Source: Escherichia coli
GTDB lineage: Bacteria > Pseudomonadota > Gammaproteobacteria > Enterobacterales > Enterobacteriaceae
Strand: one strand, 5' to 3'
DNA length: 407 bases
Assembly: GCF_003334255.1 (NCBI RefSeq)
Contig: NZ_QOWU01000246.1
The notes below the pieces were generated by a model that was not told the origin of the DNA, made no database searches, and saw only the letters and a list, made by a program, of their open reading frames with translations. The position numbers were made by a program, and so were the translations under genes. Below are positions 1 through 407 of this stretch, piece by piece (within the stretch, counting starts at the first letter, position 1; each line of letters opens with the position of its first letter).

Positions 1-72
1 TTGTAAATCCCCGTGAAGGCAGATGCGTGCCAGTGGCGGTGACGCCAGACAGAATGCGTTCGTCGTTGCCAT
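1..72 (-). CDS. I: Phage tail assembly protein I homolog (lambda gpI family), N-terminal 24 codons only; continues beyond window position 1
   Basis: An ATG at + 72..70 (minus strand) opens a frame reading MATTNAFCLASPPLARICLHGDLQ up to the window edge. This resembles the N-terminus of lambda gpI as I recall it (roughly MAATHTLPLASPGMARICLYGDLQ...). It is in a different frame from K and overlaps K's 3' end, as in phage lambda. A purine-rich Shine-Dalgarno-like tract lies upstream. Confidence 0.75.
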   Translation of the reverse strand, partial: MATTNAFCLASPPLARICLHGDLQ

Positions 73-407
73 TTTTCGGAATACCTCTCCCGTTTACTCA
101 GTTGTTCAGGCAGATGGTGAAGCAGCTCACCGTTGCCGCAGTAAATGGCGGCATGGTTGGCCACCGATGCGCCAAAGCAGCACAGCAGAATATCGCCCGC
201 CTGTGCAGAGGACAGGGGCACCCGGTAAAAGCCCGTGGCCTCCATATTGTCCAGGTACAGGTTCTGGCCGTTGCGCCACCACTCATCCTCGCGGTGAAAA
301 TCCGGCATCTCAGTCCCCGCCAGATGGTAGGCATCCCGGAACAGCGTGTAACAGTCCGTCACCCCGTGCTCAAAGCGCCGTCCTGTCAGATGTGGCACAC
401 AGCGGAA
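1..407 (-). CDS. K: Phage tail(-tip) assembly protein K homolog (lambda gpK family), C-terminal NlpC/P60 (C40 peptidase-like) domain; internal fragment, truncated at both window edges
   Basis: Reverse-complement frame beginning at + position 407 is open for all 135 codons: FRCVPHLTGRRFEHGVTDCYTLFRDAYHLAGTEMPDFHREDEWWRNGQNLYLDNMEATGFYRVPLSSAQAGDILLCCFGASVANHAAIYCGNGELLHHLPEQLSKRERYSEKWQRRTHSVWRHRHWHASAFTGIY. It contains an NlpC/P60-like arrangement: Cys in TDCYTLF (+351..353), His in ANHAAIYCG (+153..155), and a second His 12 residues later in ELLHHLP (+117..119). The sequence closely resembles the C-terminal part of lambda gpK as I recall it. Neither start nor stop lies in the window, which is why the ORF track did not report it. 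Confidence 0.85.
84..91 (-). promoter_or_regulatory. Shine-Dalgarno-like ribosome-binding site (GGGAGAGG on the minus strand) for the I start codon
   Basis: The minus strand reads ...aaacGGGAGAGGtattccgaaaaATGgca..., placing the purine tract 11 nt upstream of the I ATG. The spacing is on the long side for a canonical SD, and the tract lies inside the K coding sequence, so it is constrained by K codons as well. Confidence 0.45.

Follow-up and report, generated by a model that had tools for sequence, protein, structure and literature searches.

The stretch of DNA analyzed here (the window) comprises 407 nucleotides from Escherichia coli contig NZ_QOWU01000246.1 (assembly GCF_003334255.1) and is an ordinary stretch of a lambda-like, E. 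coli-type prophage tail operon, within the tail-tip assembly block H-M-L-K-I-J. Both of its coding frames lie on the minus strand. The first, frame 1 of the reverse complement, is open over the whole window (135 codons, from position 407 to position 3, reading FRCVPHLTGRRFEHGVTDCYTLF...ANHAAIYCGNGELLHHLPEQLSKRERYSEKWQRRTHSVWRHRHWHASAFTGIY) and encodes residues 103 to 237 of the 247-amino-acid (aa) tail tip assembly protein K (gpK/TAPK), with both ends running off the window; numbering follows the K protein of L001, a 98%-identical E. coli prophage. The second, frame 3, opens at an ATG at window positions 72 to 70 and reads MATTNAFCLASPPLARICLHGDLQ, exactly 24 codons up to the window edge, as the predicted start of tail tip assembly protein I (gpI/TAPI). 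A first-pass annotation, made by a model from the letters alone, had given the window these gene contents in this orientation, and both the reading frames and the domain matches bear it out. We consider it likely that the JAB/JAMM domain of K releases a ubiquitin-like (Ubl) domain from a precursor of I during tail assembly, and that the window holds the NlpC/P60 domain of K together with most of the K C-terminal tail, the latter overprinted by the start of I. The features placed on the window are as follows.

Positions 1 to 407, minus strand: internal fragment of tail tip assembly protein K, an open frame with 98.0% DNA identity to WP_062903348.1 and a match to phrog_30.
Positions 42 to 383, minus strand: NlpC/P60 (MEROPS C40) papain-like peptidase domain of K, from a full-model match to PF00877.
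Positions 351 to 353, minus strand: codon of the catalytic Cys of NlpC/P60, C121 of full-length K, in the motif VTDCYTLF; Cys in 69 of 70 aligned K open reading frames (ORFs).
Positions 153 to 155, minus strand: codon of the catalytic His of NlpC/P60, H187, in the motif ANHAAIY; His in 71 of 71 aligned K ORFs.
Positions 114 to 119, minus strand: His-His pair H199 and H200, in the motif LLHHLP, giving the third polar residue of the NlpC/P60 triad; each His in 71 of 72 aligned K ORFs.
Positions 84 to 91, minus strand: Shine-Dalgarno-like sequence GGGAGAGG, putatively serving gene I, inside the K codons for Arg-Glu-Arg and 11 nucleotides (nt) upstream of the ATG.
Positions 70 to 72, minus strand: predicted ATG start of tail tip assembly protein I in its long form, the only canonical start and equal to the lambda gpI start in NC_001416 and the PDB.
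Positions 34 to 71 (approximate; codon grid 72 to 34), minus strand: lineage-specific N-terminal leader of I, residues 1 to 13, from the AlphaFold2 model and homologue starts.
Positions 1 to 33, minus strand: I residues 14 to 24 (LARICLHGDLQ), strand β1 and the following turn of the predicted ThiS/MoaD-type Ubl, from Pfam and AlphaFold2.
Positions 1 to 72, minus strand: dual-coding segment of overlapping frames, K residues 214 to 237 (frame 1) and I residues 1 to 24 (frame 3).

The translation of the K frame in the window matched Pfam NLPC_P60 (PF00877) over model positions 1 to 105 of 105 (E = 6.1e-14) and the PHROG tail family phrog_30 (E = 1.5e-87). The active-site Cys, His, and His-His pair are present in the window in the correct order, and they are kept in all but one of ~70 intact homologues. 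With a full-model match at window 383 to 42 and the catalytic residues intact, the first-pass claim that the window holds the NlpC/P60 half of K stands. Against the NCBIfam model "phage cell wall peptidase," K scored 25.6 bits, below the cutoff of 81.9. A role as a cell wall lysin is unlikely despite the conserved active site, because K is missing from virions and works in the cytoplasm, a compartment without peptidoglycan. It is conceivable, and we offer it tentatively, that the NlpC/P60 domain is instead a second, dedicated assembly protease with a tail-protein substrate of its own; a proteolytic step of this kind may fall in the I linker or may be the cleavage of gpH to gpH*, which is a reasonable idea.

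By megablast, the best DNA identity to the window was 98.0% among E. coli genomes, 96.3% among phages, and 96.6% among plasmids. Related sequence was present in 3,947 of 5,426 complete E. coli genomes, at a median of two places per genome, and the exact window sequence was found neither in those 5,426 genomes nor in 50,697 phage records, 72,556 plasmids, IMG/VR contigs, or GTDB representative genomes. Likewise, a 49-mer spanning the window-specific variants had no exact match in viral contigs or GTDB genome contigs. Prophage L001, whose gene order is U-V-G-T-H-M-L-K-I-J, differs from the window at 8 of 407 positions, none of them inside the K/I overlap, and its K counterpart (WP_062903348.1, a "C40 family peptidase" in the gene order H-M-L-K-I-J) is separated from the K fragment of the window by four amino acid substitutions. 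Five of the eight nucleotide differences cluster at window 282 to 315, within the NlpC/P60 domain, which suggests a local mosaic patch. Noncoding features were rejected as window content, as scans of both strands found neither an Rfam match at E ≤ 1 nor an inverted repeat, and nothing resembling a promoter or terminator. Every testable feature places the window in the lambda gpK/gpI family, in agreement with the first-pass view of an otherwise ordinary region that is not a new system; the pair, and the system described for it in 2006, are already known, and the window adds nothing new to them.

The JAB half of K had been predicted to lie to the right of the window, beyond position 407, which is the correct direction for a minus-strand gene, and the domain is indeed seen in near-identical relatives. 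Full-length L001 K carries a Prok-JAB domain (PF14464) at residues 3 to 105 (E = 9.7e-15), followed by NLPC_P60 at residues 111 to 224. A check for a JAB/MPN motif in the N-terminal part of K, carried out in relatives of the source, recovered it in L001 as E19 (in AESCG), H68-S-H70, S78, and D81. These five JAMM residues showed 0 substitutions among 78 distinct K ORFs, 68 to 73 of which align at each position; ORFs that do not align there are cut by contig ends or otherwise truncated. An AlphaFold2 model of the fold had a predicted local distance difference test (pLDDT) score of ~90 to 97 over K residues 1 to 105, and its top Foldseek matches, each at a probability of 1.00, were JAMM1 of P. 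furiosus (PfJAMM1, solved with the Ubl SAMP2), Rpn11, CSN5, and AMSH. A match to the NCBIfam "desampylase" model was weak (30 bits versus a cutoff of 130). Nearly all of the closest K homologues are 245 to 247 aa long with both domains present. In one small clade, K is a JAB-only protein of ~130 aa with E, HxH, S, and D intact and with no NlpC/P60 domain in K (L035:1264-1671, L038:2068-2475, L042:2101-2487, and L043:2068-2475), encoded directly upstream of a normal Ubl-bearing I. Versions of K with NlpC/P60 alone have also been recorded (PMC1779556).

The partner of this peptidase has an equally recognizable N-terminal domain, of which the window encodes the beginning. Pfam Lambda_tail_I (PF06805) matches I residues 15 to 97 (model positions 3 to 83 of 83; E = 5.2e-16), residues 15 to 24 being encoded in the window, and PHROG phrog_32 aligns with I from residue 13. 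Modeling of I residues 1 to 112 in AlphaFold2, on an alignment of 73 sequences whose mean column identity is 34%, gave a mean pLDDT of 86.5, with values of 93 to 98 over residues 11 to 90 and ~97 over the β1 strand (residues 14 to 19). The model comprises strands at residues 14 to 19, 29 to 33, 59 to 64, and 87 to 92 and helices at residues 37 to 47 and 71 to 78. Its best PDB matches in Foldseek were MoaD, SAMP1, CysO, Urm1, ThiS, ubiquitin, and NEDD8 (probability of 1.00, with target template modeling scores of up to 0.76). The I N-terminal domain is thereby predicted with high confidence to be a β-grasp of the ThiS/MoaD/ubiquitin type, the fold for which the first-pass annotation had proposed a structure prediction as a check. 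Of the two outcomes that the first-pass annotation had named as refuting its reading, a K without an upstream JAB/MPN domain and an I N-terminus of some other fold, neither was observed, the former in relatives of the source. Among the PDB matches there was no chain with an experimentally resolved I Ubl domain, which fits the published structures, in which only residues 134/135 to 223 are resolved. Gly21, encoded at window 12 to 10, is shared by all 73 sequences, and Leu23 by 70 of them. At the other end, the Ubl closes with the motif H-I-V-P92-x-x-x-G96-A97-[GK]-x-x-G101, in which P92 is conserved in 73 of 73 sequences, G96 in 71, A97 in 59, and G101 in 64. All 24 I residues in the window had been taken as the start of the Ubl domain; the 24 codons are confirmed and residues 14 to 24 do belong to the domain, while residues 1 to 13 form a nonconserved leader. 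This leader has no secondary structure in the AlphaFold2 model, has a lower pLDDT over the block of residues 1 to 10 (74), and is missing from most homologues, residue 1 falling at query residues 12 to 14 in ~73 of 100 representatives.

How much of I the window holds depends on where the gene starts, and two starts are in use in the databases. The ATG at window 72 to 70 is the sole ATG, GTG, or TTG between the last in-frame stop and the window edge. The 24 I residues that follow it are identical to those of L001 I, and I aligns over its full length with lambda gpI of the PDB (E = 3.5e-96), residues 1 to 24 onto 1 to 24. In the lambda reference record and the PDB entries, gpI is 223 aa long and starts 103 nt inside K. 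PGAP/RefSeq (WP_062864131.1) and several phage records instead begin I at a GTG over the K stop codon (GTGA), which yields a protein of 190 to 193 aa. In L001 the PGAP start lies at L001:6435, 28 nt outside the left edge of the window (similarly at L002:4435 and L006:2140), and such a short form would place all of I outside the window, leaving the frame-3 ORF as a by-product of K codons. Apart from those annotations, this alternative can draw on the origin of the window ATG, which is produced by the conserved Lys-Trp codons of K (AAA TGG, read A-ATG-G; window 70 to 75, minus strand), a site at which the I start codon and the K sequence constrain each other.

To compare start positions, I homologues were sought in the full library (3,251 at E ≤ 0.001), and residue 1 of ~100 top representatives covering the I N-terminal domain was projected onto the query. 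It fell on query residue 14 in ~55 representatives (M-x-x-[VI]-x-[LF]-[YH]-G-x-L) and on residues 12 to 13 in ~18, and only 13, an enterobacterial lambda-like group, began at residue 1. Nine representative clusters began at residue 34, as the short form would; all nine are close relatives whose I overlaps K, which points to an artifact of gene calling. Pfam, PHROG, and homologue alignments start at residues 13 to 15, and Gly21, Leu23, and Gly27, the first invariant and the other two nearly so, all lie upstream of the GTG. The short form of I is therefore best explained as a gene-calling artifact. Moreover, a GTG start would remove strands β1 and β2 from a region, residues 11 to 40, that AlphaFold2 models with a pLDDT of ~97. 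The idea that gene I truly starts at the GTG can be practically discounted, and GTG-started I is a systematic misannotation where I overlaps K. I codon 14 is CTG (Leu) in the window lineage versus a second in-frame ATG in lambda, and because of this CTG, the ATG at 72 to 70 is here the only canonical route to an intact I domain. The second ATG of lambda coincides with the start of most distant homologues. Initiation in the window would thus be expected at the ATG at 72 to 70, with GGGAGAGG at window 91 to 84 as a candidate Shine-Dalgarno-like element.

Conservation of the pairing was assessed in 84 loci, of which 80 came from diverse viral contigs and two from metagenomes, with L001 and lambda making up the rest; related loci had been searched for with a 12-sequence, full-length I subalignment. 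A K homologue ends at or over the start of I in 83 of the 84. Together, the gene identities, the domain folds, the conservation of the catalytic and cleavage site residues, and the linkage of K to I are shown by this analysis, whereas K-dependent cleavage and its timing, and the finding that virion structures contain neither K nor the I N-terminus, are drawn from the literature. The first-pass account of the founding proposal was accurate: Iyer, Burroughs, and Aravind described TAPK in 2006 as JAB plus NlpC/P60 and TAPI as carrying an N-terminal ThiS/MoaD-like Ubl with a C-terminal glycine, and they predicted that the JAB domain frees the Ubl by cutting after its last glycine (PMC1779556). In lambda virions, only gpI residues 134/135 to 223 are resolved, as a trimeric plug that holds the gpH C-terminus, and gpK was not detected by mass spectrometry (PMC10721106, PMC12617516). 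PDB entry 9e7m likewise has gpI deposited as a 90-residue C-terminal chain. The mass spectrometry supplement for the lambda virion lists gpI with one peptide, whose identity is not given, at 9.87% coverage, and so says nothing on whether the N-terminus is present. A 2025 plenary from the Davidson laboratory, in its conference summary, reports that the deubiquitinating domain of gpK cleaves the Ubl off gpI. In F-type pyocins, stalled tip precursors still contain the N-terminus of PA0640, the gpI homologue, and mature particles lack it; deletion of the gpK homologue PA0639 leaves tubes without tips (bioRxiv 10.64898/2026.02.24.707460). The first-pass statement that processing of I by K had not been resolved is, in light of the 2025 plenary and the 2026 preprint, partly outdated, and the question is now open only in part.

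We propose the following sequence of events. I would be made as a precursor comprising the Ubl (residues ~14 to 96), a glycine-rich, hydrophobic linker, and a C-terminal plug domain, and this precursor would enter the J/L tip complex. The N-terminal JAB/JAMM zinc metalloprotease domain of K, encoded just past window position 407, could then dock on the Ubl and cut at the conserved H-I-V-P92-x-x-x-G96-A97, much as a deubiquitinase (DUB) frees ubiquitin from a linear fusion; the scissile bond itself would probably be next to G96. The Ubl and K would be discarded, and the C-terminal part of I, resolved from residue ~134, would remain in the virion as the trimeric plug holding the C-terminus of the tape measure protein. 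In this scheme the NlpC/P60 domain is assigned no step. As a proxy for docking, a fusion of JAB (residues 1 to 108), a 25-aa linker, and I (residues 1 to 112) was modeled from a locus-paired alignment of 35 sequences and read by predicted template modeling score (pTM), pLDDT, and DSSP. The pTM was 0.74 despite ~38 disordered residues; I was ordered to about residue 97, with a new β-bridge at I residues 94 to 95, and pLDDT fell below 50 from residue 98 on. The model is suggestive of the Ubl tail docking in the JAMM cleft with a cut next to G96, being consistent with such an arrangement rather than proof of it.

Several points weigh against this reading of the window. The JAB half of the source K is predicted from relatives 96 to 98% identical in DNA, as the flanks of the window were not recovered. 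The ATG at window 72 to 70, as a by-product of the K Lys-Trp codons, would by its presence and conservation be no independent evidence of use. The fusion model tests docking only indirectly, and in it the Ubl tail did not score clearly higher in pLDDT than in the isolated domain. The experimental claim that K cleaves I is known only from a conference summary, and searches of the available literature library found no primary paper. Finally, the F-pyocin preprint states that the protease acting on PA0640 has not been established and reports that host proteases of unknown identity remove the N-terminus of PA0640 when it is expressed by itself in E. coli (bioRxiv 10.64898/2026.02.24.707460). The last observation would fit an alternative in which the I N-terminal domain is removed by the NlpC/P60 cysteine peptidase or by host proteases, with JAB serving as a noncatalytic, Ubl-binding module; the near-invariance of the NlpC/P60 Cys, His, and His-His residues would also fit. 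A module that only binds, however, would not need all five JAMM catalytic residues to be invariant, as a pseudoenzyme is under no such requirement. NlpC/P60 as the cutter sits poorly with the JAB-only K variants that exist beside normal Ubl-bearing I genes, and the conference report, as summarized, names the deubiquitinating domain. Moreover, it is JAMM enzymes that, as a class, cleave MoaD/SAMP-type Ubls behind their C-terminal Gly; the structural match to PfJAMM1-SAMP2 is an example. We consider removal by NlpC/P60 or host proteases improbable.

A second alternative accepts a catalytic JAB domain and gives it another target. Hor, Wolf, and Sorek speculate that DUB domains of siphophage tail assembly proteins act in counterdefense, and Bil conjugates its Ubl onto the central fiber of the tail, part of the same complex on which K acts (bioRxiv 10.1101/2023.09.04.556158). 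K JAB would then mainly strip host-conjugated, Bil- or ISG15-like Ubls from the central tail fiber J, without processing I. The Davidson laboratory report, at least as given in the conference summary, ascribes I cleavage to K itself. Furthermore, 83 of 84 loci have K next to an I that bears a Ubl, JAB and Ubl stay together even where K is without its NlpC/P60 domain, and I has its own P-x3-G-A motif at the end of the Ubl. Lambda genetics also count against this alternative, as K is required for tail assembly in hosts that lack Bil. A mainly counterdefensive JAB is very unlikely in our judgment; anti-Bil activity is possible as a secondary role of K, which would leave the near-obligate pairing with a Ubl-bearing I unexplained. 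Release of the Ubl from I by the K JAB domain thus remains the reading that we prefer.

The two genes also share bases at their junction. Past the left edge of the window the K/I overlap extends for 31 further bases (to L001:6438), for a total of 103 nt. In 48 of the 84 loci the junction is dual coding with a fixed register (K frame = I frame + 1), the last 19 to 34 K codons being co-encoded with the start, β1, and turn of I. The K tail motif N[DS]L and the I motif [QK][RQ]FG use the same bases in dual-coding loci, and with I Phe26-Gly27 encoded as TTY GGN, the matching K codon can only be Leu or Ser. A further ~20 loci encode the K-tail and I-start segments in succession, overlapping by 0 to 8 nt. 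This sequential arrangement would be explained if a tandem duplication had resolved an ancestral K/I overlap; when the K-tail and I-start regions of the nonoverlapping loci L008 and L009 were translated in alternative frames in search of relics, there was no trace of the other motif. Databases also contain predicted fusions of L to K (PF05100 with JAB and NlpC/P60) or of K to I (JAB and/or NlpC/P60 with PF06805), namely P0024, P0026, P0027, P0038, P0044, P0112, and P0113. Natural TAPI fusions were mentioned in the 2006 paper (PMC1779556), and the L-K and K-I database fusions could equally be frameshift or gene-call artifacts at overlapping junctions.

Database records of K have a fault of their own. 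The lambda reference sequence J02459/NC_001416 is without one G in GAGGC[G]TATTTC that is present in two independently resequenced lambda genomes, LC730321 and PV340536, and in all the E. coli relatives (L004:1135-1280, corresponding to NC_001416 14134-14279, compared with L005 and L006). Reference lambda K is consequently annotated as a 199-aa protein starting MSPEDW and so lacks the first 48 JAB residues, among them the catalytic Glu (AESCG); putting the G back gives a lambda K of 247 aa. The G was probably dropped in an early sequencing error that has since been inherited by derived records and by thousands of "NlpC/P60 only" database proteins of 199 aa. The practical value of the present analysis is modest and lies in these records: automated annotation often truncates I, so that the first two Ubl strands are lost, and the lambda reference record truncates K, so that the JAB catalytic Glu is lost. 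The wider significance is that of the pair itself, in which, outside eukaryotes, a ubiquitin fold would team up with a JAMM "deubiquitinase" to form a checkpoint built into virus assembly. The JAB-Ubl pairing and the P-x3-G-A site are nearly universal over the 84 diverse loci. First predicted in 2006, the pairing is now beginning to be confirmed by experiment.

Lambda gpK/gpI is the closest known system, sharing the H-M-L-K-I-J order, a two-domain K of 247 aa, an I composed of a Ubl, a Gly-rich linker, and a plug, and the 103-nt out-of-frame overlap. Between the window and resequenced lambda, 64 of the 407 DNA positions differ. With CTG in place of ATG at I codon 14, in contrast to lambda, only the upstream ATG is left here. 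F-type pyocins of Pseudomonas aeruginosa carry the gpK and gpI homologues PA0639 and PA0640, and PDB chain 25vf_9 matches I with an E value of 2e-13. As proposed for I, the mature pyocin particle keeps only the PA0640 plug (residues 127 to 200), but the particle is a tailocin and not a phage.

Among cellular systems, archaeal JAMM1/SAMP and eukaryotic Rpn11/ubiquitin are alike in setting a JAMM metalloprotease on the C-terminal glycine of a MoaD/ThiS-type β-grasp, and they are the best structural matches for both partners. Unlike them, the K/I Ubl is translated already fused, so that the bond to be cut would be the peptide bond of a linear fusion and not an isopeptide, and K has the additional NlpC/P60 domain. 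They differ further in that no E1 or E2 gene occurs in the 12.4-kb L001 neighborhood, which contains only U, V, G, T, H, M, L, K, I, J, and a tail-fiber gene, and the same holds for L009. The pair is therefore better described as a Ubl-fusion/DUB processing module than as a conjugation or signaling system. The first-pass label of a ubiquitin-like-system analog holds for the peptidase and its β-grasp partner and does not extend to conjugation or signaling. Bil (BilABCD) likewise combines a Ubl with a DUB and acts on the tail tip of siphophages, but it is a host-encoded conjugation system with E1 and E2 that attaches its Ubl to J to block assembly, whereas K/I is phage encoded, works without conjugation, and is needed for assembly. 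In the eukaryotic ubiquitin-ribosomal protein fusions (Ubi1-3, UBA52, and RPS27A), an N-terminal ubiquitin fold is made as one chain with a structural protein, and a DUB takes it off after its role in assembly. These fusions are the nearest eukaryotic analogy to I, although the lineages are unrelated and the eukaryotic DUBs are cysteine proteases.

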